Source: Nitrospira sp.
GTDB lineage: Bacteria; Nitrospirota; Nitrospiria; Nitrospirales; Nitrospiraceae
Assembly: GCA_024998565.1 (NCBI GenBank)
Contig: JACOEM010000012.1
Coordinates: forward strand, 45,403-109,402
Direction of reading: 5' to 3'
DNA: 64,000 nucleotides
Position 1 is the first letter of the stretch. Each line of letters starts with the position of its first letter. A program made the translations under genes and the position numbers. The notes beneath the pieces are model-generated. The model saw only the letters and a program-made list of their open reading frames with translations. It searched no databases and had not been told where the DNA came from. This document shows positions 34,955 to 55,389 of this stretch, piece after piece.

Positions 34955-35030
34955 GGCGCCGTACCCAAGTGGCTAAGGGAGCAGTCTGCAAAACTGCGAT
35001 GCGGCGGTTCGAACCCGCCCGGCGCCTCCA
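34955..35030 (+). tRNA. tRNA-Cys (GCA)
   Basis: Acceptor GGCGCCG/CGGCGCC, anticodon stem GCAGT/ACTGC with loop CTGCAAA, T arm GGTTCGAAC, discriminator T + CCA. Confidence 0.97.
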
Positions 35031-36175
35031 ATCATTCCTGCAGATATCTCAGAGGGTTCGGTGATTCTGACCGGACCCTGTTCCACCCGCTGATTTTCGT
35101 TACTCCCGGTTTTACTCCCGGTTCCACTCGCACTTTTCGACGCAATCGCTCCTAAACTCGCTCGATTTACCGCCGTTCGCAGATGGGCCGGGGAGAGATG
35201 GGCGTAGCGCATTGTCATCGTGATCGTGGAATGGCCCATCAGTTCCTGCACTGTCCTGATATCCACTCCTGCCATGACAGCCCGAGACGCGAAGGTATGC
35301 CGTAAGGTGTGCCAGGTGACATCTTCGATTTTAGCTCGCTTCAAGGCTGGCTCGTAGATCTTCACCACAAAGTTGCGCCCCTGCATCGGTTGTGCGGAGG
35401 TAAGAGGACTCGGGAACAGGAATGGGCTGTGCATCCACGAGGTGAGACCCTTGACGATGTCCAGCGCGGCATCCGTCAGAATGACGTGGCGGGTCTTGCC
35501 GGACTTACTCAATGGAATGGTCAAGATGCCCTGTTCGGTGTTCAGGCAGTCCCAGCGCGAATGAAACTGCTCGGTGAGGCGTAACCCTGTTTCGAGAGCG
35601 AAGGCCACAATCAACCAGTGCTCTGGAGGCAAGGTATCGCGCAGGCTGGAGATTTCTCTATCACTAAGGAACCGTAGTCGCCCGGCTGGTTCTGAAAAGA
35701 ACTTCACGCCTTTGACTGGATTGGCCGAAAGCAAACCATCGGCAATCGCCAAGTTCAGGATGCGTCGCAGGGCTCCAAAGTAGCGGTTAATCGTTCGGGC
35801 GGTTCGTGTGCCCTTGTGCTTCATTTTGGCTTGGATATGCCGTAAGTCGTCGGCGGTAATCTCGGTCAGAAGCTTCCGTCCTAGGAGCTTCGACCAGAAC
35901 TTTCCATAGCGATGCACATTCCGAAGACCTGGTGAAGTCACGCCTTCCAGATACCGCGCAATCCATGCCCGGAGGGTCAATTCCTTGGAGACGGCATACT
36001 TCTCGGGAAAGTAGCGATTTTCGCGAGCCTCGGACCGCAACCGACCGTACAGTGTCTTGGCTTGGCTCTTGGAGTCCGCCCGGAACCATTTCTCCCGGCC
36101 ATTCACATACAGGCGGACCCACCAACCGCCTTGCTTAAACACCACCCCACGGTCTTTACCGTTTCGCCTTGCCAT
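34973..36175 (-). CDS. int: Tyrosine recombinase/integrase
   Basis: N-terminal arm-binding-like domain, TGLRLTE (R), SKSGK (K), HTLRH, LMGHS, RYAH (Y); stop lies inside the tRNA. Confidence 0.95.
   Translation of the reverse strand: MARRNGKDRGVVFKQGGWWVRLYVNGREKWFRADSKSQAKTLYGRLRSEARENRYFPEKYAVSKELTLRAWIARYLEGVTSPGLRNVHRYGKFWSKLLGRKLLTEITADDLRHIQAKMKHKGTRTARTINRYFGALRRILNLAIADGLLSANPVKGVKFFSEPAGRLRFLSDREISSLRDTLPPEHWLIVAFALETGLRLTEQFHSRWDCLNTEQGILTIPLSKSGKTRHVILTDAALDIVKGLTSWMHSPFLFPSPLTSAQPMQGRNFVVKIYEPALKRAKIEDVTWHTLRHTFASRAVMAGVDIRTVQELMGHSTITMTMRYAHLSPAHLRTAVNRASLGAIASKSASGTGSKTGSNENQRVEQGPVRITEPSEISAGMIGGAGRVRTAASQFCRLLP
35100..35135 (+). repeat. 12-bp-period tandem repeats (TTACTCCCGGTT x2 plus a degenerate unit), probable integrase arm sites
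   Basis: Read directly; same motif occurs near the other att copies. Confidence 0.7.
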
Positions 36176-36872
36176 CGGGCTTTCCCTTTCGGTTTTTCAT
36201 GTCGGAATCCGCCGTTGTGCCAGTCCTACCTACTGAGGCTTTTTGTTTCTTCGGTAGATGTTTCTCTCGCCATTTACGAGTGGCCACTCGTGTCTGGCAC
36301 CGAGGACCGCAGTATGTTTGATCAAACCGAATCGCTAAGTAAATCCGTTGGCATTCTGGGCAACGGCGAATTCGCCCGGAATAGTCGACCAATAAATGGG
36401 CGAACCGATATTCAAACTCCTTCACTTTTCGCTTTGTGGCAACAAACACATTCCCTTTTCGTTCGTGGTCCGCGCCAGGCAGTGTGACAATGATGGTGAA
36501 TTGAGGGAACGTGAAGGCAGTCACTGCCTTTTCCCATAAGTTTTCCAGGCTGTGGAGGACCATGGTCTGAACCTCCTTGGCCTCTGCGCTGCTTGGAATA
36601 GTGCCACGAAACCTCTCTCCTGGGATAGATTGGACGCTCCACCCTCCTTCTGTCGCGATTTCCTCCCCATGGCGATTCGCGACGTCATCCACAAAGCTGG
36701 CCACCTCGAAAGCCAGGACCATCCATTCACTTGGCGTGAGAGCTTCTAGGTCGGTCTGGATAAACTTCAAGAGCCAGCCGACTTCGCCGTCTGCTGTGGT
36801 GAGAATCCGCTCTCTGGCCTTCTTCATCTCGCCGTAGAACTGCTCAAAAATTGCGGCACGGTCTATGGTCAT
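36156..36872 (-). CDS. Hypothetical protein with C-terminal CGNR-like zinc finger
   Basis: RRCPECQRIY...TYCGPRCQTRVATRKWR; GGAGAGG RBS; stop overlaps int start. Confidence 0.65.
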   Translation of the reverse strand: MTIDRAAIFEQFYGEMKKARERILTTADGEVGWLLKFIQTDLEALTPSEWMVLAFEVASFVDDVANRHGEEIATEGGWSVQSIPGERFRGTIPSSAEAKEVQTMVLHSLENLWEKAVTAFTFPQFTIIVTLPGADHERKGNVFVATKRKVKEFEYRFAHLLVDYSGRIRRCPECQRIYLAIRFDQTYCGPRCQTRVATRKWREKHLPKKQKASVGRTGTTADSDMKNRKGKPDGKAKR

Positions 36873-37015
36873 CTGACCTCTCCTTCTGTAGCTGGCTTCG
36901 GCAGCTTCATCACTCCACCCCATTTCATATGAAAAAACTGGAGGTGAACGAGGCACCTTGGGACTGAAAACTCTTGGGGAGTGTACCTCGTCAATGGTAA
37001 TGCATGTCAATGAGC

Positions 37016-37043
37016 GTTATGCCTAATAAGTATTAGGCATAAC
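37016..37043. promoter_or_regulatory. Perfect 13-bp inverted repeat (operator-like) between divergent genes
   Basis: GTTATGCCTAATA-AG-TATTAGGCATAAC. Confidence 0.65.
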
Positions 37044-37077
37044 AGAAATGATTCACTCATTACCAAGGAGGTGCCCG

Positions 37078-37287
37078 ATGGTCCCGAGTACAAAATTGAT
37101 CACCATTCGAGAAGCGGCAAATCGGTTAGGGCTCAAGGAAAGCACGATCAGGAAATACATCCTGAAACGGCAGATCGCCTATGTGAAGCCGTCGGTGCGC
37201 GCCGTACGGATTCCCATCGAAGAACTCGAACGGATTCTGTCTGCCGGCCTCAGACCTGCCATCCCTCAAGCGGAAGGTGCCCGATGA
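37078..37287 (+). CDS. Excisionase-like helix-turn-helix protein (HTH_17/MerR-like)
   Basis: LITIREAANRLGLKESTIRKYI...VRIP pattern; AAGGAGG RBS. Confidence 0.8.
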   Translation: MVPSTKLITIREAANRLGLKESTIRKYILKRQIAYVKPSVRAVRIPIEELERILSAGLRPAIPQAEGAR

Positions 37288-37997
37288 GCCGCTGGAAGGA
37301 GTTCCGGCGGGAGCCCGTCGCCGGGGAATGGACGCGAAAGCAGAAACGAGGCTATCACCGCGTCCGGTCGCTGCTTTGGTTCTGGGAATGCCACCAGTTC
37401 CAGGTGCTCTGGGTCACGCTCTCCACGGCAGAAGGCGGGGATGCGGAGAAGCTGACCTACCATCATAAACAACTGCGTCAGCGGATCGAACGCCAGCTCG
37501 GCTTTCAGGGGTTGGAGTATTACCAGGTCCGGACTGAGGAAGGGCATGGCGTCCTCCATATCTTCTGGGCCTGGCGGGTGCCGGACGGGGAGCGCGCCCG
37601 CCGCTTCTGGATCTCTCAGGAATGGCTTTCCTCCCAGTGGCAAGCCCTCCACGGGGCTCCGGTGGTCTGGATCAAGGCCTATCAGCCTAGCCATCGTTCA
37701 CGAAACCGTCTCAGCCGCTATGTCATCAGCCAGTACGTCCAGGATCAATGTGGCTACGTGAATATGTGTTGGTCCTGGAAGCGGTCGCTGGGCTTTCCCA
37801 TCAGCCGACTGTGGGAGGAGATGCGGCATCAATGGTCGACCAGGAATGCCTACCGACGGATCAGAGGCGAGATTGAAATCCCGAGGATCGTTTTCATCAA
37901 GACCTGGGAGGATCTGCTGTCAGGGCATCCCATTTGGTTTAGCGGCACCATTCTGCAACTCGTGCTGGGGAAGGGGCTTGTCTATCAGGAGGTGTGA
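37284..37997 (+). CDS. Putative rolling-circle Rep-like protein (atypical HUH motifs)
   Basis: WVTLST (motif I-like), EEGHGVLHIF (motif II-like), RYVISQY (motif III-like); ATGA overlap with xis stop. Confidence 0.5.
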   Translation: MSRWKEFRREPVAGEWTRKQKRGYHRVRSLLWFWECHQFQVLWVTLSTAEGGDAEKLTYHHKQLRQRIERQLGFQGLEYYQVRTEEGHGVLHIFWAWRVPDGERARRFWISQEWLSSQWQALHGAPVVWIKAYQPSHRSRNRLSRYVISQYVQDQCGYVNMCWSWKRSLGFPISRLWEEMRHQWSTRNAYRRIRGEIEIPRIVFIKTWEDLLSGHPIWFSGTILQLVLGKGLVYQEV

Positions 37998-37999
37998 GG

Positions 38000-38227
38000 A
38001 TGATCTGGCATCGATGCGATCTGAAGCTGCCGAGTCTATTTGGGCCGGCAGGTTGCAGACGGGAAGCCACCACGTATGATCGTGCGCGCAAAGCCTGTCT
38101 CTGTTCTGAGCATACGAAGGAACGGCTCTGCGAGTTTTGCCAATTTGAACGGGCGTGGGTGCGGTTTTGTTATAGGGAGCATGACGTCACATGCGAAATC
38201 TGGCTCTGTATCGACTGTGCGGGCTGA
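38000..38227 (+). CDS. Small Cys-rich hypothetical protein
   Basis: 75 aa with 10 Cys including CLC, CEFC, CIDC; AGGAGG RBS; abuts rep stop. Confidence 0.5.
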   Translation: MIWHRCDLKLPSLFGPAGCRREATTYDRARKACLCSEHTKERLCEFCQFERAWVRFCYREHDVTCEIWLCIDCAG

Positions 38228-38366
38228 CCACTCGTAGTCTCGATTCTTAAAATTCTCGGCTACCGCCACATGGAATATTCGCTCGATTAAACCAGGCCTT
38301 GGCATTGAAAGCGGACATTTCCTCAGCATGCCAGGATTTTTTCAGTTGGGTCTATAATCTATGGCT

Positions 38367-38394
38367 GTGATGAATTTGTGACGGACGCTATGCT
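38367..38394 (+). promoter_or_regulatory. OmpR-type direct repeat and -10-like hexamer upstream of response regulator
   Basis: GTGA at 38367 and 38378 (11-bp period), TATGCT at 38389. Confidence 0.5.
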
Positions 38395-38420
38395 AAAGGC
38401 ATTCCTGCTGCCTCGAATAT

Positions 38421-39149
38421 ATGGTTTTTATGGCTAAACAAATTCTTGTCGTAGAAGACGACTTAGATATTGGTCGGCTCTTGGAGATGCACCTGACCGA
38501 CACCGCATATGCCGTAGAGATCGCCAAAACCGGAGAGGATGGCCTTCAATGTGTGCTCTCGAAGAGATATGACCTTATTATTCTTGACGTGATGCTGCCT
38601 GGCATCGACGGGTTAGAGATATGTCGGCAGCTTCGATCGCTCCCCACCTATACACCCATCCTCATGTTGACTGCGAAATCCTCAGAAATAGACCGGGTCC
38701 TTGGGCTGGAAGTTGGTGCTGACGACTATGTTACTAAACCATTTAGTGTTCGAGAACTGCTCGCACGTGTAAAGGCCCTCTTCCGCCGTTCTGAAGCATT
38801 TAGAGATAAGACGCAGGACCTTCAGAAAACTATCCGCGCAAAGGGCCTCTTCATCGATGTTGAAAAACGGAAGGTCACAGTGAGAGGCAGCTTGAGGGAT
38901 CTCACGGCCAAAGAGTTCGATTTGCTCCTGCAGTTTGCATCCCATCCAGGCCGAGTTTATACGCGCAGTCAGCTTCTCGATTCGGTCTGGGGTTACGGTC
39001 ACGACGGCTATGAACACACGGTAAATTCCCATATCAACAGATTGCGCGCCAAGATTGAAAAGGATTCGGCCAAGCCCGACTTTATTCTGACTGTGTGGGG
39101 CGTCGGATACAAATTCTGTGAACTAGAAGGATCCGGCTTAAAGGACTGA
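38421..39149 (+). CDS. OmpR-family response regulator
   Basis: DLIILDVMLPG, LTAK, KPF, HTVNSHINRLRAKIE. Confidence 0.93.
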   Translation: MVFMAKQILVVEDDLDIGRLLEMHLTDTAYAVEIAKTGEDGLQCVLSKRYDLIILDVMLPGIDGLEICRQLRSLPTYTPILMLTAKSSEIDRVLGLEVGADDYVTKPFSVRELLARVKALFRRSEAFRDKTQDLQKTIRAKGLFIDVEKRKVTVRGSLRDLTAKEFDLLLQFASHPGRVYTRSQLLDSVWGYGHDGYEHTVNSHINRLRAKIEKDSAKPDFILTVWGVGYKFCELEGSGLKD

Positions 39150-39151
39150 CC

Positions 39152-40630
39152 ATGTCGCGGTCACTCTACGGCAAACTCGCCCTTGTGTTGCTCTTCCTGT
39201 TTTGTGCGGTTGGGGTTCTATACACTCTCCTAACGGTCTTCACGACGCGCATGTATCAGCAGGAAGTGAATCAGAAGCTGAACCGTGCTCTGGCCAGAAA
39301 CATTGTTGCTGACCAGTTACTAAGCAGCCAAGGAGAGGTGAGTCCGTACGCTCTGAAAGAACTGTTTCACCTACTTATGGTTATCAATCCGAGCATTGAG
39401 ATGTACTTGCTTGATGAGAATGGGGGCATAGTCAACTTCTCCGCTCCCACTGAGAAGGTCAAGCGCTCGGCTGTCTCGTTAGAACCAATACATCGTTTTC
39501 TCACCGAGGCGGACGCATTTCCTATTCTTGGTGACGATCCCCGTGATGCGACTCGCCAGAAGGTCTTTTCTGTTTCAGCCATACCCTTACACGGACAACC
39601 AACAGGATATCTGTACATTGTCCTTGGCGGAGAGGAGTATGACTCCGTCGCCGATATGCTGAATCGGAGCTACATCTTCCGGCTGAGTCTCTGGGCAGCA
39701 CTTACCGGCTTACTGTTCGCTCTTTTGGGCGGTCTCTTTCTATTCAACATGCTCACCAGAAGGTTAACCAAACTAGCATCGACGATGGAAACGTTCGCAA
39801 AGAGCGATTTTTCAGAGGCGCTCGAGCTGCATCCTCAGGATTTCATTCCTGAGCGGAATAGTGATGAAATTGATCGGCTCCGGTCCACATTCAATCGGAT
39901 GGTAGAACGAATTCTTCAGCAAGTGGCCACTTTGAAGCAGACGGACATCCTTCGGCGTGAGTTGGTGGCCAATGTGTCCCATGATTTGCGTACCCCCCTG
40001 GCATCCTTGCATGGGTATCTGGAAACGTTACTGATGAAAGAAGGGACGCTTACACGAGAGGAATACCGGACGTTTCTCGACATTGCCCTCAAGCAAAGCC
40101 AACGGCTTAGGGAGCTTGTGGGGGAACTCTTTGAATTGGCTCGCTTAGATTCGCGTGAAGCTCGCATTCAATGCGAACAATTTTCTTTAGCCGAGCTTGT
40201 CCAGGATGTGTGTCAAAAGTTTCAACTCACCGTCGCAAATAGGGGGATAGCCCTAAAGAGCAGTTTTACAGATGATCTGCCATTTGTGGAGGCTGATATC
40301 GGCCTCATCGAGCGGGCGCTAGAAAACATAATCAATAATGCTACTCGCTATACACCGAGCGGAGGGACCATTGCGATTTCGTTAAGCCACGAATCCGGCT
40401 CGGTTATGATACGAATTTCTGATACTGGCTGTGGTATCGCTGATCACGACTTGCCTTATATTTTTGATCGTTTTTATAGGGCGAATCGACAAAATCAGCC
40501 TGGAGGAGCTGGGCTCGGGCTGGCCATTACTAAGCGAATCCTAGAGCTACATGGAAGTACAATTCGAGCAGAGAGTATACCTAACATCGGAACCATCATC
40601 AGCTTTGAACTGCCCACCGTGCACTTCTAG
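39152..40630 (+). CDS. Sensor histidine kinase (periplasmic sensor-HAMP-HisKA-HATPase)
   Basis: Two TM helices, NVSHDLRTPL, ENIINNA, DTGCGI, GAGLGL. Confidence 0.93.
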   Translation: MSRSLYGKLALVLLFLFCAVGVLYTLLTVFTTRMYQQEVNQKLNRALARNIVADQLLSSQGEVSPYALKELFHLLMVINPSIEMYLLDENGGIVNFSAPTEKVKRSAVSLEPIHRFLTEADAFPILGDDPRDATRQKVFSVSAIPLHGQPTGYLYIVLGGEEYDSVADMLNRSYIFRLSLWAALTGLLFALLGGLFLFNMLTRRLTKLASTMETFAKSDFSEALELHPQDFIPERNSDEIDRLRSTFNRMVERILQQVATLKQTDILRRELVANVSHDLRTPLASLHGYLETLLMKEGTLTREEYRTFLDIALKQSQRLRELVGELFELARLDSREARIQCEQFSLAELVQDVCQKFQLTVANRGIALKSSFTDDLPFVEADIGLIERALENIINNATRYTPSGGTIAISLSHESGSVMIRISDTGCGIADHDLPYIFDRFYRANRQNQPGGAGLGLAITKRILELHGSTIRAESIPNIGTIISFELPTVHF

Positions 40631-40674
40631 TCTCTATTGTTCTCGACCGTTACGGGCCGCTCGCCACATCAGGC

Positions 40675-40728
40675 GTGATAAAAATGTGACAATTTCGTGA
40701 GATCGATGTGAAGGGGCAGGGCTATGCT
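40675..40728 (+). promoter_or_regulatory. Four GTGA direct repeats at 11-bp period upstream of cld
   Basis: GTGA at 40675, 40686, 40697, 40708; TATGCT at 40723. Confidence 0.6.
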
Positions 40729-40781
40729 TGACCATGCATTGGGTTGTACCAGCCCTTTTAACCGAAAAGGAGAACGGACTT

Positions 40782-41576
40782 ATGAAGAGAATCAGTCAGA
40801 TTTCGATGGTTGCGCTTCTATTATGCTTCCTTCCCATGTTGTCTGTAGTGAGTGAGGCGGCCATGGATCACGACAAGCTCTTAAAGGATCCTGGTGTCTA
40901 CGCAACGTTTGCTGTGTTCAAGATGGGGGAGCACTGGTGGCAGATGGATCATGAAGCGCGTGTCAAGGCGGCCTCCGAAATGAAAAAGGTGTTCGAAAAG
41001 CACGCCGATAAGTTAATAGTCGATACGCATTTGCTTCGTGGTCTGTCTGAGAGAGCTGATGTACTTGTCAGGATTCACTCGAAAGAGATGGTTCATAATC
41101 AGAACTTCTTGTTAGACCTCATGGGGACCACTATGGGGATGGATATGAAAAATACTGACACCTTCAATGGCATCACCAAAACCCTAAATTATGTCCCTAG
41201 CTTCCCAGAAGAACTGAAGGGGGAGTTGAAGACACCGCCACCTCAGGGCAGCCCATACGTTATAGTGGTTCCTATACGCAAGGACGCAGAATGGTGGATT
41301 TCTGGACAAGACACCCGAACAGGCCTGATGAAGGAACACACGGATGCGACGGTCGCATACTTGAAGACGGTGAAACGGAAGCTCTATCACTCCAGCGGGT
41401 TGGATGATTGGGATTTTATTACCTACTTTGAAACATCCAAGCTGGATGATTTCAACAATCTTGTGACTGGATTGCTCAAGGTCAAGGAGAACCGTCATAA
41501 TAGGCGTTTCGGTGATCCTCTCCTGTTGGGGACCATTCGACCATTGGATGAAATCCTCGATATTCTCAGTCGCTAG
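40782..41576 (+). CDS. cld: Chlorite dismutase (long/clade 1 type, exported)
   Basis: Signal peptide; PIRKDAEWW, proximal EHT, distal Arg in KTVKRKLYHS, DFITYFET, KVKENRHNRRFG, matching the recalled Nitrospira defluvii Cld layout; 264 aa. Confidence 0.88.
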   Translation: MKRISQISMVALLLCFLPMLSVVSEAAMDHDKLLKDPGVYATFAVFKMGEHWWQMDHEARVKAASEMKKVFEKHADKLIVDTHLLRGLSERADVLVRIHSKEMVHNQNFLLDLMGTTMGMDMKNTDTFNGITKTLNYVPSFPEELKGELKTPPPQGSPYVIVVPIRKDAEWWISGQDTRTGLMKEHTDATVAYLKTVKRKLYHSSGLDDWDFITYFETSKLDDFNNLVTGLLKVKENRHNRRFGDPLLLGTIRPLDEILDILSR

Positions 41577-41605
41577 TCTATTTCGCTCGCGCGTTCCAGA
41601 ACACG

Positions 41606-41636
41606 GTGACCACCTGGGAACAGGTGGTCACTTCTA
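41606..41636 (+). terminator. Hairpin after cld
   Basis: GTGACCACCTG-GGAA-CAGGTGGTCAC perfect 11-bp stem. Confidence 0.6.
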
Positions 41637-41695
41637 TGCTGGTACTCACAAATCTTTACTTCTAATACTTAGTTATAGGCTCTATATCCGCCCCA

Positions 41696-41972
41696 CCCTG
41701 TCACCACCTGTTGGCTTCTCAGGGGGTGAGAGGGAGGAAATGCAGGGTTATTTTCAAGTGGTGACGGCGATGCGCTAGCTTGGCCGTCCCCTTGGTGAAT
41801 TAGTGGCCATGCAGAGTTGAGATGAAGACTTTGTCTGCCCAGGATTATCAACTAGACGCGAAATATGCTGACCACGAAGGCCCGCCGGCCGCTCCGGACT
41901 GCCGGGGCCGGACGGCCGGGGGGCTCGGGGGCGCAGCCCCCGCTTCACTTGATCTATATGGTCAAAGTAGGA
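41696..41972 (+). repeat. Origin-like module copy A (hairpins + 95-bp repeat)
   Basis: Homologous to 43920-44194; 95-bp core 41878-41972 matches copy B at 84/95, last 48 bp identical. Confidence 0.8.
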
Positions 41973-42173
41973 CGACCCTTCCTTTGGGTTCTCAGGCGGA
42001 AGCCTAACTTTTGGGCGGGAGGATTCAGTTTCAAGGAAGCGCTCGCCGATTGCCTAAAGATTTTGCGCGAGCCTCTGAGGAACCTCGAAATGTCGATCTA
42101 ATGAGGTTATATTTCGATAATCTTTAATGCAGAGGGGTGCCGGAAAGGCAAAGGCTGAACGAAAAAAGGATCC

Positions 42174-43403
42174 ATGAGAATTAAACTAAAAAAAGGGACG
42201 CCTCAGTGGTTCAAGTGGAAACTTAGTTTCTTAGGTGAGCCCGCTCCGATTAATCCGATGGCACTGTTTGCTGGAAACATGTGGAGTTACTTCGATCCTG
42301 GATCTCCAAATGAAAGATATGAAAATTTCATACGGAACGGCCGGCATCCTCTATCGACCTTTTTGGATAGCATGCTTCTGTATGACAAGGTTATTGTCCC
42401 AACTCATGACTTCATGTCGGTTGTTATTTTGATAAGTGTTTTTGGAGAAGATGGCGTTGCAGAGCTGATTGAAAATAATGCAGTTAGTTTTGTACGTGTG
42501 AAAGGGGCACTTGCGTACATAGGGAACGGGGGTGGCCTTGCATCATACGACATTCTTCACGACCAAACTCGCCCTGTAGATCAATTTGCGGATGATGATT
42601 CAACCTTGGAGTGGGCCCTGAATGGGCTCAGTACGAAGCCGAGAAGGGTGAACTTAAGTAGGATGATCCTTGAGAACACCCAAACATTCCCGATGGAGAA
42701 GATGGTTTCTCTGATCCGCGAGGAGTCCTACAAGGATATTTTAGATGGCCCATATTTAAGGACTGCTTTTAGCCTCAGGAATACCAGTCTTGATCATTTG
42801 TTTGGTGTTGAGCCCAATCAATTTAGGTGTGGGGAAATTCAGACTTTCGAAGAGCGAGATGAAATTGATTCCGTTCTTAGAATCGCCCGCGCCAATCTAG
42901 AAATGTTGCTTGCATTACAGACTGGTTGCACGGATACAGCTACTGGAACGCCTGTTGGTCACGTATTGAAGGCGAAACAGCAGCGAGGCAGTGCTAGATC
43001 TAGTCCTTTTGAGAGATTTGGATCCCTGAAAGAAATTACAGAAGTTCCCGATATCGCGAGTTATGTAATAGATGCTTCGATTCCAGATAGACCAGCACGC
43101 CTGCATGACATTTTGATTAAGCGAGGGACTAGAGATGCTGTTCAATTTAGAGCGTGGTTTCATGAAAAGTGTCGTGACAGTCCTCACGTAATTGCCAAGG
43201 AATACGGGAGATTAATGCATGATATTCCATTTGTTTCGACTCACAAAGGCAAGACTTTGCGTCTTTTGGCTACGACAATGGCGGGAGTGTATGACCCCGC
43301 TCTGGGCTTGGTAACCTCCATCGCAGACAGCTTTCTTGTAGATCTTGTGCGGAAACGAAACCCGAAGTATTTTATTGAGGATCTACGGCAAATTAATAAT
43401 TAA
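42174..43403 (+). CDS. Hypothetical protein (AT-rich cargo; start uncertain)
   Basis: 409-aa ORF, no recognisable motif, AT-richer than core genes. Confidence 0.7.
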   Translation: MRIKLKKGTPQWFKWKLSFLGEPAPINPMALFAGNMWSYFDPGSPNERYENFIRNGRHPLSTFLDSMLLYDKVIVPTHDFMSVVILISVFGEDGVAELIENNAVSFVRVKGALAYIGNGGGLASYDILHDQTRPVDQFADDDSTLEWALNGLSTKPRRVNLSRMILENTQTFPMEKMVSLIREESYKDILDGPYLRTAFSLRNTSLDHLFGVEPNQFRCGEIQTFEERDEIDSVLRIARANLEMLLALQTGCTDTATGTPVGHVLKAKQQRGSARSSPFERFGSLKEITEVPDIASYVIDASIPDRPARLHDILIKRGTRDAVQFRAWFHEKCRDSPHVIAKEYGRLMHDIPFVSTHKGKTLRLLATTMAGVYDPALGLVTSIADSFLVDLVRKRNPKYFIEDLRQINN

Positions 43404-43479
43404 TTAGTATGTTGGTTTTGACGGGCAGTGTTATTGGGAACTGATTCGCTTCCCACCAATCTACGGCAACGTACAAACC

Positions 43480-43527
43480 CTGATCCCGGTTTTAGTCCCG
43501 GTTCCACTCCCGATTTTGCTCCCGGTT
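43480..43527 (+). repeat. Four tandem 12-bp units (xxxxTCCCGGTT), probable arm sites at the right end of element 1
   Basis: CTGATCCCGGTT TTAGTCCCGGTT CCACTCCCGATT TTGCTCCCGGTT. Confidence 0.75.
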
Positions 43528-43646
43528 GGGAGTCCTCTTTAGTCGTAAATGGGCACCAATAAAATGTCGTAACACCTTGTTATTTAATGGCCTTACTCTC
43601 TGTCTGTCGCTGTTGATCTTCATGGGTCGTAGAGCCCTCGGGCAAG

Positions 43647-43691
43647 CTGCAAAACTGCGATGCGGCGGTTCGAACCCGCCCGGCGCCTCCA
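43647..43691 (+). repeat. att copy 2: 45-bp duplicate of tRNA-Cys 3' half
   Basis: Identical to 34986-35030; starts exactly at the first base of the anticodon loop. Confidence 0.95.
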
Positions 43692-43919
43692 TACCCTGCT
43701 TGCTCGATCCGGATCCCTTACGATTGTTCTTGGCGACGGAATAAGCACCTCCCTGGCATTCCGGGTAATTTTTCCTGACTAGGCCCCGCCCCTCGTCATT
43801 CCCCTTGCTCCCGGTTTTACTCCCGGTGCGGTTCAGACTTTCACGGCGATCCCTTTCAACCGGCTCTATTGCACGGGACTCACGTGATGGCGATAAGGCT
43901 GAGCCGAGCTGATCAATTT

Positions 43920-44194
43920 CTCCCTGTCACCAGTCTTTTATCCGTGACGAGTGACAGGGAGCTATACCCCTTCCTCATGCCAGGCGGCGAAGCGTCAGCT
44001 TGGCCGTCGGTCTGTTCCATCGTTCGCGACAAACAATGAAAGAAGAAACCGAAGTTGAGACCATCGGAATGCTTACGAGTGCGGACGTTCCGCCCAACGA
44101 GGCCCGCCGGCCGCTTCGGGTCCTGCGGACCGGACGGCCGAGGGGATCGGGGGCGCAGCCCCCGCTTCACTTGATCTATATGGTCAAAGTAGGA
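43920..44194 (+). repeat. Origin-like module copy B
   Basis: 11-bp IR CTCCCTGTCAC/GTGACAGGGAG, 23-mer GGCGAAGCGTCAGCTTGGCCGTC, 95-bp core 44100-44194. Confidence 0.8.
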
Positions 44195-44263
44195 TGGCCG
44201 AATTGCCGAAAAAGTGAGCTTGAAGTAGTATCGTTTAACACTTCGCTTGAGCGAAATTCTCCA

Positions 44264-44608
44264 ATGGACATTACCGGTGCAAGCCCAGGAAGATTTGAAT
44301 TAGGAATACGGCTATTCCTTGAGGGGCAGGCTGTTCTCTACAACGAGGTCGTTTTTTGGAAAGATGGGGACAAAGCCTTGCATGTGAATAGCTACTCCGA
44401 CTGGAACTGCGAAAATACGACTCCTGACATGGCACGACAAAAAATTGAGAGGTCTAAGGCAGTCTTAGAAGAACTTTCCGAGAAGAGCAATGAATTCTCG
44501 GAAGTAGCTAATCGGTTGCCGCATGCACACTATTTTTGTCATGACTGTGGAAACGCGGGCATAGTTTTAGCCAAAGAATTAAACGGTGAGTTCACCTGGC
44601 TGTGCTAG
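44264..44608 (+). CDS. Small hypothetical protein (immunity-protein-like size and composition)
   Basis: 114 aa from MDITGASP; the upstream part of the tracked ORF runs through the origin repeat and is probably non-coding. Confidence 0.55.
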   Translation: MDITGASPGRFELGIRLFLEGQAVLYNEVVFWKDGDKALHVNSYSDWNCENTTPDMARQKIERSKAVLEELSEKSNEFSEVANRLPHAHYFCHDCGNAGIVLAKELNGEFTWLC

Positions 44609-45020
44609 AGCCATGCAATTATATCCTAGGCTTCTTGGACAAAGATCTTAGGCTGATCTCAGCAGTTCAAATTTCAGCGTCCGACACGGATACAGTCCGT
44701 TGAGCAATTTGGACGCCATACATACTTTTTCATTCTTCGAGGGCTAACGCTCGAAGCCTTGGTCACCACAGCAGGAATAGGTTTAAACGGTATCCTTAGA
44801 CGCGTAAACCTCCTGTCGCAACCATAGATCTCTTACCTGAGCACAGCATTCCGGTAGCGGCGAAAACTACGCCCCCTACGTCTGCGGGCTTTTGAATAAA
44901 GAATTCCGCAGATACCATCCAATCTTTGCCATTGCTGGTTCAAGTTGTGACGGGTTCTTCTTTCCACTAAGCACTCTGCCACCGCTAGTGACATGTGCCT
45001 TAACCAGAGGGAGAAATGGT

Positions 45021-45536
45021 GTGAACAACGAATTTGTTCAGGTCTGTGTTGACGATGGCACCATCGCAGCCGGAGATCCGTGGGAAGTCATGGAGCCGGT
45101 TTTGTGGTCAGCTAATATCTATGATGGGCCAGAGCAATACGAAATAAGTCTGTCAGGATTTTCGATTCCCCAGCGCCTTGTCTACGCCTTGATGTGGTAC
45201 CGCATTGAAGTCAACAATGGCGGCCACGATCAATTCTATTTCAACTCAACTGGAATAGTGTGGAAGGACGCCTTGAACGCGTTCGAGGCGCTGGAGCTCC
45301 CCGAGTTCGCCAATATCCTCAGAGGGTCGACGGAACGGCTGGGTGGATCGCCTTCGCTTGATCGTCAGGCGCGTAACGAACAGTTAGAATCGATTGAGCC
45401 AGACTTCGACGATCTAGACGAGGCGTTTTACGAGGCCGAGAAAAGAATGGACCTTGATCATCGGATCATGAGTTTCATACGTGCACGACCTTCAGCTTTT
45501 TATTTTGTTGGAGAAGTTAGGAAACCTGCGGACTGA
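45021..45536 (+). CDS. DMP19/DUF4375-family protein
   Basis: EVNNGGHDQFYFNSTG signature, very acidic (FDDLDEAFYE); GTG start behind GAGGGAG. Confidence 0.75.
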   Translation: MNNEFVQVCVDDGTIAAGDPWEVMEPVLWSANIYDGPEQYEISLSGFSIPQRLVYALMWYRIEVNNGGHDQFYFNSTGIVWKDALNAFEALELPEFANILRGSTERLGGSPSLDRQARNEQLESIEPDFDDLDEAFYEAEKRMDLDHRIMSFIRARPSAFYFVGEVRKPAD

Positions 45537-45739
45537 GGCGGTTCAGACCGTTTGTACCCTTGAAGATACATTACATTTGAGATGCTCGGCAATTGAGGAC
45601 AGCCTGCAGTAGGCATGGTTAGGCCTTGGTTAGCTGGAATATGTAGCCTCGGTGATCGGTTAGATAGGCCTGCCGGAGACAACCGCCCCTCCTACATCAC
45701 ATTGTATTGATTGCAACAGCTCTGACCTCGTGAGGGTAT

Positions 45740-46159
45740 ATGCCCTGGTGTATATCATTCCAAATCTATGGTGAAGAATTTCATCCTAGTCGGGTTCCGT
45801 TCCAATTCACTAAGCAACACGACCCTGGCATTATCGGACGCAGAGGACGTTACCGCGGGCGACCAGTTCTCTATGGGTCTGCATCCTATGAAGTTCCTTC
45901 TTCAATTCCAAATATTGACAGGATCAGGCATGTGGTTGAAACCTTTGAGCCTCTATTGGGCGATATTCGCGCTGCAGGTGCTACAGAGTGGCATATTGAT
46001 ATCTGTCGTTATTTCAACGCCCAGTGCAATGAAGCTTATTCACTCGACGATTTGCTATTGATCGCTCGGCTTCAGTGTGGATTCTGGTATTCAGCCTACA
46101 GTGTCTCGAAGAAAGAAGAGAAGAGATTGCAACGGGAATTGGGAGGATTTCGGCCATGA
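45740..46159 (+). CDS. Small hypothetical protein, weakly DUF4279-like
   Basis: FQIYGEEFHP...G pattern; GAGGG RBS; family call tentative. Confidence 0.5.
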   Translation: MPWCISFQIYGEEFHPSRVPFQFTKQHDPGIIGRRGRYRGRPVLYGSASYEVPSSIPNIDRIRHVVETFEPLLGDIRAAGATEWHIDICRYFNAQCNEAYSLDDLLLIARLQCGFWYSAYSVSKKEEKRLQRELGGFRP

Positions 46160-46538
46160 GTTACCCGTTGCCGAAAAGGTAATAAGCGAAGCCCCATTCG
46201 TGGCCTCCCGCTGGGCTCACTAGAAACATGAGTTCCATTGAGATTGAAGGCTCCGATGCTGGCCTGACTCAGCGGCACTAAGCGGATGCTGAATGATAGG
46301 AAATACTTCTAGACATTTGAACCGGTGGCGTCCGATTCGGAGACAGGCCGTTGAGGTGTTCTGCCTTTCGAAACAGTTACGTCGGCGTACAAACCCTGGT
46401 CCCGGTTTTGCTCGCGGTTGGGAATCCGCTTCGGTGGCAAATGGGCACAAGGAAAAGTTGTTAAGCTATTACGCTTCTTGATTATTCTTTTCTGTCGATC
46501 GCTGTTGATCATCATCTGTCTTACGGCCATCGGGCAAG

Positions 46539-46550
46539 CTGCAAAACTGC
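46539..46550 (+). repeat. att copy 3 (5' part only: CTGCAAAACTGC)
   Basis: Preceded by CGGGCAAG as at copy 2; homology to the tRNA stops after ACTGC. Confidence 0.75.
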
Positions 46551-46731
46551 ACTGTAGGAAAATAAAACGGGGGAACCTTCGCCATACACACCGCTAGTAG
46601 CCGACACCCGCCGAACATGCAATGCGTGCGTCCTTATCAAACAGTCCTTTAGCATTTTACTTATCGCGGCAACCAGCGTTGGTTCATGCTAGTCTGCAGC
46701 ATAGCAGACGACCTTCTACCTGAGAGGACTC

Positions 46732-48477
46732 ATGGCCCCTGAACCTATTTTTTTTCGAGATCTCGCGTATGTCTTTATCGCTGCGGTCCTAGGCGGGGCC
46801 TCCGCCTATCTGCTTCGTCAACCGTTGATTCTGGGCTATGTCTTCGGCGGCATTCTGATCGGCCCCTTTACCCCTGGTCCCTCTATTTCGGATGTCCATA
46901 GTTTCGAATTGTTCGCCGAGATTGGCGTGATCCTCTTGATGTTCTGCATCGGGATCGAATTTTCCTTAAATGATTTGTTACGAGTTCGGTGGGTCGCCCT
47001 GCTGGGAGGGCCACTCGGCATTTTCCTCTCCATTCTCCTCGCTGTCGGTCTGAGCCATGTTGTGGGATGGAGTTGGATTCAAAGCGTGGTGATCGGGTCG
47101 GTGGTGTCCGTGGCGAGCACGATGGTTCTGGCGCGCTTGCTGCTGGACAGTGGAGATTTGCGTGCCAAGCATGGCCGGGTGATGATCGGGATCACACTCG
47201 TGGAAGATCTGGCGGTGGTTGTGCTCACCGTCCTGCTTCCGGCGCTCGGTGCTCTGGAACCAGGCCGCTTTGCCACGATTGGAAAGGCCTTGTGGCTCGC
47301 GGTCCTCATCCTGGTTCCCTTCGCCTATCTCGCGGCGAAAGCCATTCCTCCGTTGTTGACACGCATTGCGAAGACACAAAATGCCGAACTCTTTCTGCTG
47401 GTAGCGTTGTCTATAGGAATCGGCACGGCAGCCGTCACACAGATGGCGGGGTTGTCCCTGGCGCTCGGCGCGTTTCTGGCAGGATTGATCATCAGCGGCT
47501 CAGAATATGGTCACGAAACCTTAGCCCGCCTCCTGTCGCTCCGTGACGCTTTCGTGGCTCTGTTTTTTGTGACGATCGGTGTCCTCATCGATCCGCGCGT
47601 GGTGTGGGCCAATCTCCCGTTGCTCGGCCTCATGCTCGGATTGATTATCGTGGGGAAATTCGTCATTTGGACGCTGGTCGTGAGGCTGTTTCGTTATGCT
47701 TGGGGCACCGCCCTGCTCGTGGGCGTCGGTCTCACGCAGATTGGCGAATTTTCTTTCGTGTTGGTTCAGGTCGCTAAAACGGCGGGACATGTGAGCGAGG
47801 ATGTGTATAATGCCACCCTGGCCGCTTCGCTGCTGAGCATTCTCCTCAACGCGCCCCTCGTTCGGTATGCGCCTGGGTGGATCGCTGCATTACATTTTAA
47901 AATGGGACGAGTGTCCTTGCCCATTCAAGGCGGGATTTCTGACGAGCAAGCCGGGCATGTGGTGCTGTGTGGGTTCGGTCGCATGGGCAGTGCGGTGGGA
48001 CTCGCCCTCGATCATTTTGAGCTTCCGTACACCGTGATTGAGCGCGACCCGGACATCGTTCGACAGTTGCGCCGACGCGGAATTTCCTGCGTCTACGGGG
48101 ATGCCTCGCAAACTGAGCTGTTGAAAGCGGCCGGTGCCCAACATGCGGCGTTGGTGATCGTGGCGCTTCCGGTCATTCACGAGACGTCGCTTACCGTTCG
48201 ACGATTTCGGGGGCTGAACGAAAAAATTCCCCTTCTCGCCCGAGCGCATGGCTTTAGGGAGGCTGAGGACCTGAAGGAGGTGGGAGCGACGGAAGTTATC
48301 CTGCCCGAGGTCGAGGGGGCACATACCTTGATCCGACACGCCTTCCAGGCCTTGAAGGTCTCGAAGTCGAGCATCCTCGATTATCTTAAGTCCTGCCAAG
48401 CGTTTCGATCGTCCGGTGAGGGACCTGATTCAGGGAACGTGGAGGCCGGGAAGGCTGGCGCTGGGCGAAGTACGTGA
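46732..48477 (+). CDS. CPA2 cation:proton antiporter with TrkA-N/KTN domain (Kef/YbaL-like)
   Basis: IGVILLMFCIG, SVASTMV, EDLAVV, GAFLAG, QIGEFSFV, CGFGRMG, YGDAS. Confidence 0.9.
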   Translation: MAPEPIFFRDLAYVFIAAVLGGASAYLLRQPLILGYVFGGILIGPFTPGPSISDVHSFELFAEIGVILLMFCIGIEFSLNDLLRVRWVALLGGPLGIFLSILLAVGLSHVVGWSWIQSVVIGSVVSVASTMVLARLLLDSGDLRAKHGRVMIGITLVEDLAVVVLTVLLPALGALEPGRFATIGKALWLAVLILVPFAYLAAKAIPPLLTRIAKTQNAELFLLVALSIGIGTAAVTQMAGLSLALGAFLAGLIISGSEYGHETLARLLSLRDAFVALFFVTIGVLIDPRVVWANLPLLGLMLGLIIVGKFVIWTLVVRLFRYAWGTALLVGVGLTQIGEFSFVLVQVAKTAGHVSEDVYNATLAASLLSILLNAPLVRYAPGWIAALHFKMGRVSLPIQGGISDEQAGHVVLCGFGRMGSAVGLALDHFELPYTVIERDPDIVRQLRRRGISCVYGDASQTELLKAAGAQHAALVIVALPVIHETSLTVRRFRGLNEKIPLLARAHGFREAEDLKEVGATEVILPEVEGAHTLIRHAFQALKVSKSSILDYLKSCQAFRSSGEGPDSGNVEAGKAGAGRST

Positions 48478-48512
48478 ATGTCTGAATTAACTGCGGCGTC
48501 ATCCAATCTCTT

Positions 48513-48550
48513 ACTGCGATGCCGCGGTTCGAACCCGCCCGGCGCTTCCA
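48513..48550 (+). repeat. att copy 4 (3' part, 2 mismatches to tRNA-Cys)
   Basis: ACTGCGATGCCGCGGTTCGAACCCGCCCGGCGCTTCCA, 36/38 identical to 34993-35030. Confidence 0.85.
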
Positions 48551-48667
48551 AACAGAGCTTGCTCGACCCGGAGCCTTTACGATTGTTCTTGGTGCCGGGA
48601 TAACCTAGTCATCACCTTCTCGTTCATTCTGTTTCTGCCTGCCGGCAGCCCGTGCTGATACCGGCGT

Positions 48668-53118: not shown

Positions 53119-55389
53119 TTAATCCCGACTGCAGGGCGATTCGCTTCGATGCAGTAATGTCGGCCGCAGGCAGAACCCGCGCCACGGCGATTGATCCCAG
53201 GACCAGTTCAATAGGGCGTACTCGGTATGGGTCATGCGGTGTTCGATCACCCGTCCGAACCCGCCGACCCGCAAGGAGAATCCGGCCGGCAGCAGAACAT
53301 CACGCAACAATCCGAACTCCGTGAAGTTTCCTGCGAAGTAGGCGGGGTCGCCCTGTTCATTCACGAAATGCTCGCCTCGCCAGATCGTGACGTAGGGCCT
53401 CCAGCCGTCCAGATCCACACCGGCCGTCAGTTGATAGCCCCGACCGCGAACGATCGGTGCTCCGCCCTGCGTTGGTTCGTGCTGGCTGGTGAGATACAGC
53501 GCCATCACATCGATTTCGCGAAACCACGACAGGGCGGACGAATAGCGATTGGGCTGGAACGTCAATTGCGGTCCGACGGCCGTCAGGAAATTGTTCGAGG
53601 CGGGCCGGTCCCTCGGCAGGCCGGCTCCGAAAAACGTCCGGGACTCCGAGTACTGGGCCCCGCCGCTGTGTGTCCAGTAGACCTGGCCGTTCAAGGAAAA
53701 GAATCCGGCGCTCGCGCGCCCTGTGTATCCCACGTCGAATCGCTCCGCCTTTTGAAATGTCTCGATCTGGTTCCAGTTGATGAACAGATCCTGCTGGTAA
53801 TGTTCCCGGTTCACCAGGAGCTGGAAGCCCTGTTCGAGAGGGCGTGAAAACAGGGAGGCGTCGTTGAACAGCGCATCCACGAAGGGATGGTTGCGCTTGA
53901 TCGTGCCGGCAATCACCGACACTGCCGGCCAGAGTTCATACTCCGCCGACAGGATCGGCTGCACCGTGTGGAATCGTTGGGTGTCCCCGACGGGCAACCC
54001 TGCAAAGACACCGGCGTCTAGGTTCAATCCGGGCGCAGGACTGTATCGGAGCACCGGCGCGAGGTATTGGCCGGCGAGGGTGCTATTTGAGACCGGTCGT
54101 CCTCCGATTTCCCGAAAGCCCGAATAGCCGATGTTATACACATAGGTTAGAGCATCGAACTTGGCCGTAAATCGAGACGGCGAATGTGTCGGTTTCGGTT
54201 CGCTCGAGGGAGTGTCCCCGGCGGAGAAGAGATCGCGCACAAATTGCCCGTCCGTGGTATCCCAATTCCAATTGAAGACTAGATATTGCTGGCTGACCCA
54301 CTTGAACGTGTCACGGTTCTGATATGTGATGCCGTCTTCCGTGAAGAAGGCCCTGATCCGGCGGGCCTGCACGCCGAACTCGATCGACGCGGACTGGCCG
54401 AGCGGGATGATTTTTGACAGACCAAATTCAGGGAAATTGCTCGCCGCATATTCCGGGTCGCCCTGCTGACTGAGGAACTGGCGCCCTCGCCAGAATGACA
54501 CCGAGGGCCGCCACCCGGCCAGATCCAGCCAGACGCTCAGTTCATAGCCACGCCCGCGGACTGCCGGCTGGTTGCCCAGCGACTCATTGAAAGAGGTCAG
54601 GTAGGTGGCGCGAATGCTAAGCTGGTTCCACCAAGCCAGGGCGGGAAAATAGGTGGAGGGTTCGAGCACCAGCTCAGGTCCTGCGGCTGTGACCAGATTC
54701 TCTGCGGTGTTGAACGACCGGTCCAGTTTCAGGAGGGCCTGGCCGTTGTGGCCCCAATGGGCCTGGCCGTTGAAACGGAAGGGGCCAGCGCGCAGCTGCC
54801 CAGCATATCCGACATCATACCGGTTGGTTGCGGAGCCGCGAAACGCCTGCTCCCAATTGATGAACAGGTCCTGTCGGTAATACCGCGAATTCACCAGGAC
54901 TTGTGCGCCCTGTTCGAGGGGCCGCACAAACCGGTTGGCGTTGTCGAAGACCGCATCGTGAAAGTCCCGGTGCGGGCCCGCCAGGGTGCCGAGCAGGGCG
55001 GAGACCTCCTCTGTCGGCTGGTATTGCAGACGGATAATCGGCCGGACCTGTGAGACTTCCGTGTCGTGGCCGAACGGCATGTTGGCGAACAGGCCGAGGT
55101 CCAGGTCCATGGATGCGAACAGGCGTTTGCGTACATACACATTCAGTAAGTTGCCGATGAGTGTGGTGTCGCGCCCCAGTCCGTTGGTGAAGGTGTTGTC
55201 TTCCAGCCCCTGTTTTTCAAGGTTGAGCACATACGTGGTCGTTTCGAGTCGGAGGTCCAGATCGTGAGAGGCGGAGGCGGACAATGCCGGACTGTCTGCT
55301 GAGGCCATGCGGGCGTGGAGCAGCAACAGAGGCGTGCAAATGACGACCAGCGTGAGAGCACGCCATGTGAAGAGACTTACCTGCAGCAC
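53119..55389 (-). CDS. Outer membrane protein made of two tandem homologous beta-rich domains
   Basis: Signal peptide; repeated RPLEQG, QDLFINW, DVGY, VRGRGY, GWRP, QGDP, EFGL, NWxWD motifs offset by ~360-370 aa. Confidence 0.7.
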   Translation of the reverse strand: MLQVSLFTWRALTLVVICTPLLLLHARMASADSPALSASASHDLDLRLETTTYVLNLEKQGLEDNTFTNGLGRDTTLIGNLLNVYVRKRLFASMDLDLGLFANMPFGHDTEVSQVRPIIRLQYQPTEEVSALLGTLAGPHRDFHDAVFDNANRFVRPLEQGAQVLVNSRYYRQDLFINWEQAFRGSATNRYDVGYAGQLRAGPFRFNGQAHWGHNGQALLKLDRSFNTAENLVTAAGPELVLEPSTYFPALAWWNQLSIRATYLTSFNESLGNQPAVRGRGYELSVWLDLAGWRPSVSFWRGRQFLSQQGDPEYAASNFPEFGLSKIIPLGQSASIEFGVQARRIRAFFTEDGITYQNRDTFKWVSQQYLVFNWNWDTTDGQFVRDLFSAGDTPSSEPKPTHSPSRFTAKFDALTYVYNIGYSGFREIGGRPVSNSTLAGQYLAPVLRYSPAPGLNLDAGVFAGLPVGDTQRFHTVQPILSAEYELWPAVSVIAGTIKRNHPFVDALFNDASLFSRPLEQGFQLLVNREHYQQDLFINWNQIETFQKAERFDVGYTGRASAGFFSLNGQVYWTHSGGAQYSESRTFFGAGLPRDRPASNNFLTAVGPQLTFQPNRYSSALSWFREIDVMALYLTSQHEPTQGGAPIVRGRGYQLTAGVDLDGWRPYVTIWRGEHFVNEQGDPAYFAGNFTEFGLLRDVLLPAGFSLRVGGFGRVIEHRMTHTEYALLNWSWDQSPWRGFCLRPTLLHRSESPCSRD

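Follow-up and report, generated by a model that had tools for sequence, protein, structure and literature searches.

A hairpin module resembling a rolling-circle origin in tRNA-linked genomic islands of Nitrospira

The window analyzed in the present study, a stretch of 64,000 nucleotides from a Nitrospira contig (JACOEM010000012.1), contains two copies of a hairpin module of about 280 bp, which an earlier note made from the letters of this DNA had proposed as a double-strand origin for the Rep-like protein of the surrounding element, pointing to a CTTGAT motif beside GC hairpins. That proposal is now supported by the homology of the protein to the Rep of the Thermotoga plasmid pRQ7, by its Microviridae-like fold, by the co-occurrence of the module with rep, and by a decamer that is conserved down to 26% Rep identity. 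The module probably serves in cis as the origin for a rolling-circle (HUH-type) initiator that this Nitrospira island family itself encodes. What is new is the distant initiator family and its islands, while the mechanism of a rolling-circle origin is itself textbook knowledge.

The two module copies and their folding

Copy A (41696-41972) and copy B (43920-44194) lie on the + strand and are built from the same parts in the same order. The inverted repeat CCCTGTCAC...GTGA(G/C)AGGG is found at 41696-41734 and 43922-43959, the 23-mers at 41766 and 43986 agree at 20 of 23 positions, and the cores at 41878-41972 and 44100-44194 align without gaps at 84 of 95 positions, with the mismatches concentrated at the tip of the long GC hairpin. 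The spacing between the parts is 69, 112, and 94 nt in copy A and 63, 114, and 94 nt in copy B. The terminal 47-mer, which ends in AGTAGGA, is identical in the two copies (41926-41972 and 44148-44194), occurs nowhere else in the window, and is expected zero times in shuffled sequences. Between the 23-mer and the core, the copies have unrelated sequence for approximately 90 nt (32/91 identical). Recomputation agreed with the coordinates and identities behind the earlier description of three shared parts at near-identical spacing, a 95-bp core with an identical 3' end, and mismatches gathered in the loop of the GC hairpin. The further statement that the module is present once in each element stood in part: each element does have one copy, but copy B belongs to a remnant that lacks int and rep, and copy A is parted from rep by an inserted 3.3-kb gene cluster. 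The parts of the two copies are as follows.

41696-41734, + strand: hairpin H1 of module A, CCCTGTCACC ... GGTGAGAGGG; in canonical elements it stands about 25 nt past the stop codon of a small open reading frame (ORF)
41763-41788, + strand: hairpin H2 of module A, a 6-bp stem GACGGC/GCCGTC with the conserved loop GATGCGCTAGCTTG, corresponding to the 23-mer
41879-41925, + strand: hairpin H3 of module A, long and GC-rich, about 14 bp, with a variable tip
41926-41942, + strand: hairpin H4 of module A, CGGGGGC-GCA-GCCCCCG, placed 2 nt before the origin core
41943-41973, + strand: putative origin core of module A, CTTCACTTGATCTATATGGTCAAAGTAGGAC, with the decamer TTCACTTGAT at 41944-41953; the conserved end of the module
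43922-43959, + strand: hairpin H1 of module B, CCCTGTCAC ... GTGACAGGG
43983-44008, + strand: hairpin H2 of module B, GGCGGC ... GCCGTC, with one G.T pair
44101-44164, + strand: hairpins H3 and H4 of module B
44165-44195, + strand: putative origin core of module B, with TTCACTTGAT at 44166-44175; an orphan in an element without rep

The decamer TTCACTTGAT occurs only twice in the window, each time within a module, and core A forms an imperfect inverted repeat, ACTTGA/TCAAAGT, around an AT-rich spacer. A protein-coding role of the core, whose frame is open in both copies and in locus L025 (..GSGAQPPLHLIYMVKVG..), was rejected because indels of 1 or 2 nt, located at the hairpin tips and within H4, change the reading frame yet leave the base pairing intact.

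The hairpins are maintained through compensatory changes. In H2, G-C pairs are exchanged for A-T pairs at two stem positions, and the wobbles found there comprise seven G·T types and one A·C type when read on the + strand, which favors that strand. Loci L030, L055, L114, and L163 have other helices of different sequence in place of H3/H4, the H4 of L030 being longer by one pair (GGGGGCC-GAA-GGCCCCC), and a hairpin stands immediately 5' of the motif also in the distant lineages L168, L170, and L158; the upstream hairpins are absent from the AT-rich relatives and from pRQ7. These divergent lineages and H2 were used instead of an RNAalifold covariation analysis of 68 core sequences, which was uninformative because the core is nearly invariant and the search had been anchored there. 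Relative to shuffled sequences, RNA folding gave z scores of -3.65 (A) and -3.92 (B), and folding of the 3' 100 nt of the + strand as DNA gave -4.55 (A) and -2.06 (B). As single-stranded DNA (ssDNA), the + strand of three Nitrospira copies is more stable than the - strand by 2-6 kcal/mol (-35.9/-29.7, -31.6/-27.8, and -25.8/-23.5 kcal/mol). Because the + strand is the rep strand and bears the conserved motif, it would be the strand that is nicked and displaced in a rolling-circle scheme, and folding of H1-H3 on the displaced strand would fit a role as accessory Rep-binding sites and/or as a single-strand origin.

The same observations could be read as signs of a structured noncoding RNA, either the 3' untranslated region of the rep operon or a small RNA derived from it, with a regulatory role for the island or its cargo. 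The wobbles and stability of the + strand, the compensatory changes in H2, and the RNA folding scores of about -3.7 and -3.9 would all suit such an RNA, as would the orientation of the module, which is shared by the upstream operon and by about two-thirds of the first cargo genes. The strand asymmetry is, however, explained equally well by ssDNA; the most conserved part of the module is the largely unstructured 31-nt core; and this core accompanies Rep even in AT-rich relatives and pRQ7, which lack the GC hairpins and have the site inside rep or upstream of it. Moreover, a search of 41600-44300 against Rfam 15 gave no match at E ≤ 10 save a chance hit to a long noncoding RNA, the only match in the window at gathering score being tRNA-Cys, and promoter-like or terminator-like sites were found in neither module. 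An RNA role therefore seems quite improbable to us. For lack of consensus sites in either copy, the module was also rejected as a promoter or terminator. A group II intron, a TnpB/IscB guide RNA, and a retron were dismissed as well, since there was no Rfam match and the core has no RT, TnpB, or IscB gene, and so was a dif/Xer site, for which no likeness to the conserved XerD arm was seen and no further test was made.

The Rep-like protein and the decamer beside its gene

The gene that precedes the module in most islands encodes a protein of 237 aa (37284-37997 in the window), which has no match in Pfam, NCBIfam, or PHROG at normal thresholds. Related clusters number 85, all of them unnamed or annotated as "hypothetical" and devoid of a Pfam domain. 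When 72,556 PLSDB plasmids were searched with tblastn, the sole match was the Rep of pRKU1/pRQ7 (E = 7e-6, 26% identity over 157 aa), and the pairwise comparison with pRQ7 Rep gave an E-value of 4e-13. pRQ7 Rep is itself a member of PF23343 (2.4e-15), and individual members of the Nitrospira family weakly match PF23343 REP_ORF2-G2P and phrog_3419, "rolling circle DNA replication initiation." pRQ7 has been reported to use rolling-circle replication (PMC3398313, which cites Yu & Noll 1997). The family alignment contains the motifs QVLWVTLS (TLT-type), GVLHIFWAW with one invariant His (H92), and SRYVISQYV with the near-invariant Y146 and Y151, and E86, close to H92, is also near-invariant. In an AlphaFold2 model (pLDDT 85.6), the helix formed by residues 137-149 contains Y146, which aligns with a Tyr of the YMMKY motif of pRQ7 Rep, so that a Tyr stands on a helix after the HUH strand. 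A structural search of BFVD gave 71 matches at E ≤ 1e-3, and every named one among the 50 listed is a Microviridae replication initiator. The 237-aa protein is a distant homolog of pRQ7/pRKU1 Rep and would form a new branch of rolling-circle initiators.

The decamer TTCACTTGAT, usually placed right after a hairpin and on the rep strand, adjoins rep in every lineage for which flanking sequence was available, either upstream or downstream of the gene and over a range of Rep identity from 26 to 100%, and T(C/T)ACTTG(A/T)T is invariant in 8 lineages. The divergent cases are listed here with their Rep identity.

L055, 66%: module past the small ORF; H3 differs in sequence; core CACTTGTTACTAATGGTCAAAGT
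L163, 61%: module past the small ORF, downstream of rep; H3 and H4 differ; core almost the same, CCTCACTTGATTCATTATGGTTAAAGTAGCAC
L170, 50%: GGGAatttagTCCC and TTCACTTGATATATATGTGTCAAG, 115 nt upstream of rep
L168, AT-rich, 42%: a 7-bp hairpin followed by CCTGC and TTCACTTGATATATATGGTCAAA, which precede the conserved start by about 80 nt
L158/L162, 38%: a GC hairpin and TTTACTTGATA at the 5' end of rep
pRQ7 (L171), 26%: TTCACTTGAT AGTAAAT GTCATAAGT, positions 229-253 of the rep strand, within the 5' end of rep

L170 and L168 share a pattern, placed 80-115 nt ahead of rep, of a hairpin and then TTCACTTGATATATATG(T)GTCAA. In pRQ7, the site of which is an observation of the present analysis, the decamer occurs once, and none of 200 shuffled sequences contains it. 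Because a short sequence stays beside rep despite changes of position, flanks, base composition, and host phylum, the decamer is best read as the candidate recognition and nick site of the initiator.

An exact 22-mer from the core was found at 37 loci in species-representative genomes, nearly all of them Nitrospira and with at most six loci per genome (six in one metagenome-assembled genome (MAG) of N. defluvii). The copies of the module in such genomes number 39. A search of metagenomes with a hairpin-anchored pattern that left the core free to vary matched at least 120 stretches, and at least 84 of these are the present module. The homology extends upstream for 2.4-3.5 kb at many loci, and the canonical order there is tRNA, integrase (- strand), an ORF of about 255 aa (- strand), excisionase, Rep-like protein, small Cys-rich ORF, module, and variable DNA. 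Of the 29 genome copies with 1.2 kb or more of sequence on the upstream side, about 19 have rep within 4 kb there; among the metagenome matches listed, rep lies upstream of 45 of the 52 copies with at least 1.4 kb, and 38 of these show the canonical succession of rep, small ORF, and module, always on the rep strand. Such a fixed order indicates that the module is no free-standing dispersed repeat. A repeat similar to REP (repetitive extragenic palindromic) sequences or to a miniature inverted-repeat transposable element, without a link to rep or to attachment (att) sites, would agree with the presence of several copies per genome and with the frequent breakage of assemblies at the module; it is, however, extremely improbable because most copies keep a fixed position and orientation past rep and the small ORF, the upstream part of the module co-diverges with Rep, terminal inverted repeats are lacking, and the module was found only inside tRNA-linked islands. 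The check suggested in the earlier note, namely occurrence of the module independent of rep and att, accordingly went against the dispersed repeat.

The islands occupy seven tRNA genes, with tRNA-Arg (two isoacceptors), Asn, Gln, Lys, Glu, and Cys among them. Across the same islands the integrases are 31-55% identical to that of the window and the Rep proteins 95-100% identical, which points to module swapping or homogenization of a 2.4-kb core made of the 255-aa ORF, xis, rep, the small ORF, and the module. Loci L003, L009, L029, L047, L076, L080, and L147 keep the 3' core, their upstream sequence being unrelated from varying distances, and are either 5' truncations or divergent modules; L029, which comes from a Nitrospirota MAG of greater distance, has no more than the final ~29 nt in common. 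The hairpin pattern also matched unrelated GC-rich metagenome repeats (L038, L050, L075, L093, L113, L119, L121, L125, L126, L130, L145, L146, and L152) of the form ...GAGCGAGCGCCAGCGAGCCGG.CG.CGAT followed by GGGGTTCGGGGGCGCAGCCCCCGC, which have the same small hairpin and no CACTTG core.

Proposed mechanism and relation to known systems

In the scheme that we propose, the functional heart of the module would be its last ~50 nt, consisting of the short GC hairpin, TTCACTTGAT, an AT-rich spacer of 7-8 nt, and GTCAAAGTAGGAY. The 237-aa Rep-like protein would recognize this site and nick the + strand, most likely within ACTTG^AT, the predicted position being G41951^A41952 by analogy with origins of the phiX174/pC194 type; the AT-rich spacer is an alternative. 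The integrase and excisionase would excise the element from its tRNA site, and the nick would then prime leading-strand synthesis on the circle, while H1-H3 may serve as accessory Rep-binding sites and/or as a single-strand origin.

Several observations weigh against an origin of this kind. Where pRQ7 Rep has HMH, the Nitrospira clade has H-(I/V/M)-(F/L/I), so that none of the 23 aligned members has the second metal-binding His; for this reason, the protein is named Rep-like and HUH-related, and the term canonical HUH enzyme is not used for it. A Foldseek search of the PDB gave weak matches, with first E-values of 1e-2, albeit consistently to HUH nucleases (SIRV1 ORF119, nanovirus, circovirus, pMV158 RepB, and a RAYT). 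The module DNA had no match among plasmids, phage records, and IMG/VR viral contigs, and the contigs that were fetched included no circular form of the element. In the window itself, the Rep-like protein is not followed by its own module, a gene cluster standing in that place; module A belongs to a subtype that is paired in locus L020 with a Rep of 77% identity, and module B has no rep, so that either copy may be a relic or active only in trans. The 31-nt core is nevertheless identical between the subtypes, and Rep could therefore plausibly act on both A and B.

The Thermotoga plasmids pRQ7, pRKU1, and pMC24 (846 bp, a single Rep) provided the only named homolog when collections of plasmid and phage records were searched with tblastn. 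pRQ7 Rep shares the TLT-type motif I, the first His, and a Tyr with the 237-aa protein, and the plasmid has TTCACTTGAT-N7-GTCA(T)AAGT on the rep strand where the module has TTCACTTGAT-N7-GTCAAAGT. pRQ7 differs in being a free plasmid that has the site within the 5' end of rep and keeps a full HMH motif, and in lacking an integrase, cargo, and long GC hairpins; the Nitrospira elements, 4-9 kb in size, are integrated as islands, with the site about 0.5 kb downstream of rep and H-U-F in place of HUH. The second point of comparison is gpA of phiX174 and the VP4 initiators of Microviridae, with their origin of ~30 bp; the predicted fold matches the Microviridae initiators, and the conserved core of the module is likewise about 30 nt long and reaches about 20 nt 3' of the putative nick. 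The Nitrospira core contains ACTTGAT, which is the heptamer that surrounds the nick of phiX174 (CAACTTG^ATA), and CTTGATA is the nick motif in the double-strand origins of pC194-family plasmids. Unlike these phages, the Nitrospira elements have no capsid or other viral genes, the Tyr spacing is i/i+5 rather than i/i+4, and the similarity to Phage_GPA is faint (0.037, for pRQ7 Rep).

Another function with the same chemistry is that of an origin of transfer (oriT), at which the HUH-like protein would act as a relaxase to mobilize the excised island through a conjugation apparatus encoded elsewhere, instead of or besides replication. A hairpin beside a conserved nick region on one strand is the architecture of an oriT as much as of a double-strand replication origin, and the islands are small, have no transfer genes of their own, and are spread over many genomes and seven tRNA sites. 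The protein is, however, most closely related to replication initiators (pRQ7 Rep, Microviridae Rep, and PF23343), with no relaxase among them; pRQ7 is typed as non-mobilizable in PLSDB; and no match to a relaxase family and no gene for a coupling protein or a type IV secretion system were found in the inspected loci, although action in trans is possible. We regard mobilization as unlikely but worth bearing in mind.

Other integrated elements offer further points of comparison. The pSAM2-type integrative and conjugative elements of actinomycetes (with RepSA) and the integrative conjugative or mobilizable elements that use rolling-circle replication likewise combine a tyrosine integrase, an excisionase, and an initiator of the rolling-circle type at the 3' end of a tRNA gene. 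The Nitrospira islands differ from these elements in their Rep family (a RepSA match of 0.14, for pRQ7 Rep), much smaller size, lack of FtsK-like and conjugation genes, host phylum, and cargo slot beside the origin. The defense-gene hot spots of P4-like phage satellites and of small islands similar to phage-inducible chromosomal islands have a comparable layout, in which a core of int, xis, and replication genes is followed by a sharply bounded variable slot, but the present elements have no primase-helicase, packaging, or capsid-redirection genes, and their initiator is HUH-like.

In soils, waters, and treatment plants, Nitrospira oxidize nitrite and perform complete ammonia oxidation, and we know of no genetic system for them. 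The Rep gene with an origin of ~50-300 bp, the cognate integrase/att pairs for seven tRNA sites, and the natural cargo slot would make a candidate native toolkit. The analysis also proposes a function for a family of 85 "hypothetical" clusters and ties it to the initiators of the smallest known plasmids and of Microviridae, and it outlines a widespread island family of nitrifiers that carries anti-phage genes. A literature search for Nitrospira islands returned nothing relevant.

The cargo slot and the islands of the window

The earlier note had remarked that the homology of the module stops abruptly at AGTAGGA, and the end is just as sharp in essentially all of the more than 120 copies elsewhere, where it falls 3-6 nt past CAAAG, i.e., after TAGGAY. 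The consensus past ...AAAGTAG reads G (0.69), A (0.95), Y (0.90), G (0.59), and A (0.46) and is random thereafter, and 87 copies have 83 different continuations downstream, about 17 of them sharing GACGAYACTTC before they diverge. The right edge of the variable segment is equally sharp, at ...AAC|GTACAAAYCCTGATCCCGGTTTTACTCCCGGTT followed by the integrase arm repeats. Near-identical elements have different cargo between the same flanks (a 409-aa gene, a 347-aa gene, and others), and the length of the segment is 1.5-3 kb. In relatives (L002, L009, L011, and L028), it encodes DRT RT_UG14 (5.9e-198), bSEFIR-NBARC-TPR, and NsnA/DUF262-like proteins; an MmeI-like fused methylase was also recognized by eye in relatives. 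Against a defense database, the cargo of the window gave no match, its 409-aa protein being of no family and the product of 44892-45536 being similar to the DNA mimic DMP19. The simplest reading of the variable segment is a cargo slot between two essential cis elements, the homology stopping abruptly because the origin ends there and a slot of fast turnover begins.

A fixed end facing 83 different sequences could also mark a site of cassette capture or recombination, resembling attI or the terminus of an IS91/Helitron-like transposon, with the junction as the joining point. The subterminal GC hairpin about 30 nt from the end and the 5'-truncated copies (L003, L009, L047, L076, L080, and L147) would agree with this, and nick sites of HUH enzymes are recombination hot spots. 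The breaks, however, lie at 0, at +3 to +5, and at about +11, and this spread argues against a single cut-and-join position and fits turnover limited by selection on the origin. In addition, the site is invariant while the integrases (31-55% identical, at a distal position) and their seven tRNA targets vary; no attC-like repeat closes the cargo, the right edge of which is the integrase arm region; and the elements are bounded by tRNA att repeats, without transposon ends. A dedicated capture site is for these reasons improbable. L102 was considered as a break at the nick itself and was rejected as a generally decayed copy. A rather unlikely variant is that the origin doubles as a point of cargo capture, where strand transfer by Rep at the nick would join the 2.4-kb core to new DNA in an HUH-driven, integron-like system. 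It would explain both the 83 sequences at one fixed end and the 95-100% identity of Rep and origin among islands with integrases that differ by 45-70%. If true, such an origin would shuffle defense genes and integrase/att modules among many tRNA sites of nitrifiers.

In the window, copies of an att core recur at 34981-35030, 43642-43691 (96%), and 48501-48550 (74%), together with a truncated remnant of arm plus core at 46378-46550 (core part 46491-46550), which identifies 34955-48603 as a tandem array of integrated elements. Element 1 spans 35031-43691 and, with the tRNA gene, comprises the following features.

34955-35030, + strand: tRNA-Cys, the 3' 50 nt of which are the att core of the array
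34973-36175, - strand: tyrosine integrase, adjoining tRNA-Cys
36156-37010, - strand: conserved core ORF, 284 aa, with a zinc-finger-like CxxC...C tail at the C terminus (CPEC...CxPRCQxR)
37048-37287, + strand: excisionase/AlpA-like HTH_17 protein, 79 aa
37284-37997, + strand: Rep-like protein, 237 aa, a distant homolog of pRQ7 Rep
37994-38227, + strand: small Cys-rich ORF, 77 aa, no family match; precedes the module in canonical elements
38421-41576: cluster of a response regulator, a HAMP histidine kinase, and a chlorite-dismutase-like (Cld) gene, between the small ORF and module A
41974-43461, + strand: cargo slot of element 1, with a single 409-aa gene at 42174-43403, no family match
43462-43691, + strand: right end of element 1, made up of the integrase arm region (TCCCGGTT repeats) and an att core copy at 43642-43691

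The 284-aa ORF has faint NinG/HNH-like matches (E = 0.004 and 0.0014) and could be a regulator of the island or a nuclease. Direct repeats of TCCCGGTTTTACTCCCGGTT at 35093-35136, 43473-43516, and 43798-43841 flank the att cores; they are probably the arm-binding sites of the integrase and form the sharp right edge of the cargo slot. Element 1 has a Rep of the main type and no module of the main type: the stop codon of the small ORF at 38227 is followed by CCACTCGTAGTCTCG and then by the regulator/kinase/Cld cluster (38228-41690). To judge from its letters, CCACTCGTAGTCTCG might be the scar of a module end (..CACTTG...GTAG|TCTCG as in L002). Loci from other samples are arranged alike (L016, L043, L065, L066, and L088). 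Element 2 starts with module B 230 nt past the att core, having lost int and rep, and only the final codons of the small ORF remain upstream.

A gene for a Kef-type K+/H+ antiporter (46732-48477) stands between the att remnant and the last att copy. Over 5.4 kb, the window is 99% identical to an N. defluvii MAG, and its source is an N. defluvii-like genome. A 111-nt direct repeat, 73% identical between its copies at 53767-53877 and 54847-54957, recurs at a distance of 1080 nt.

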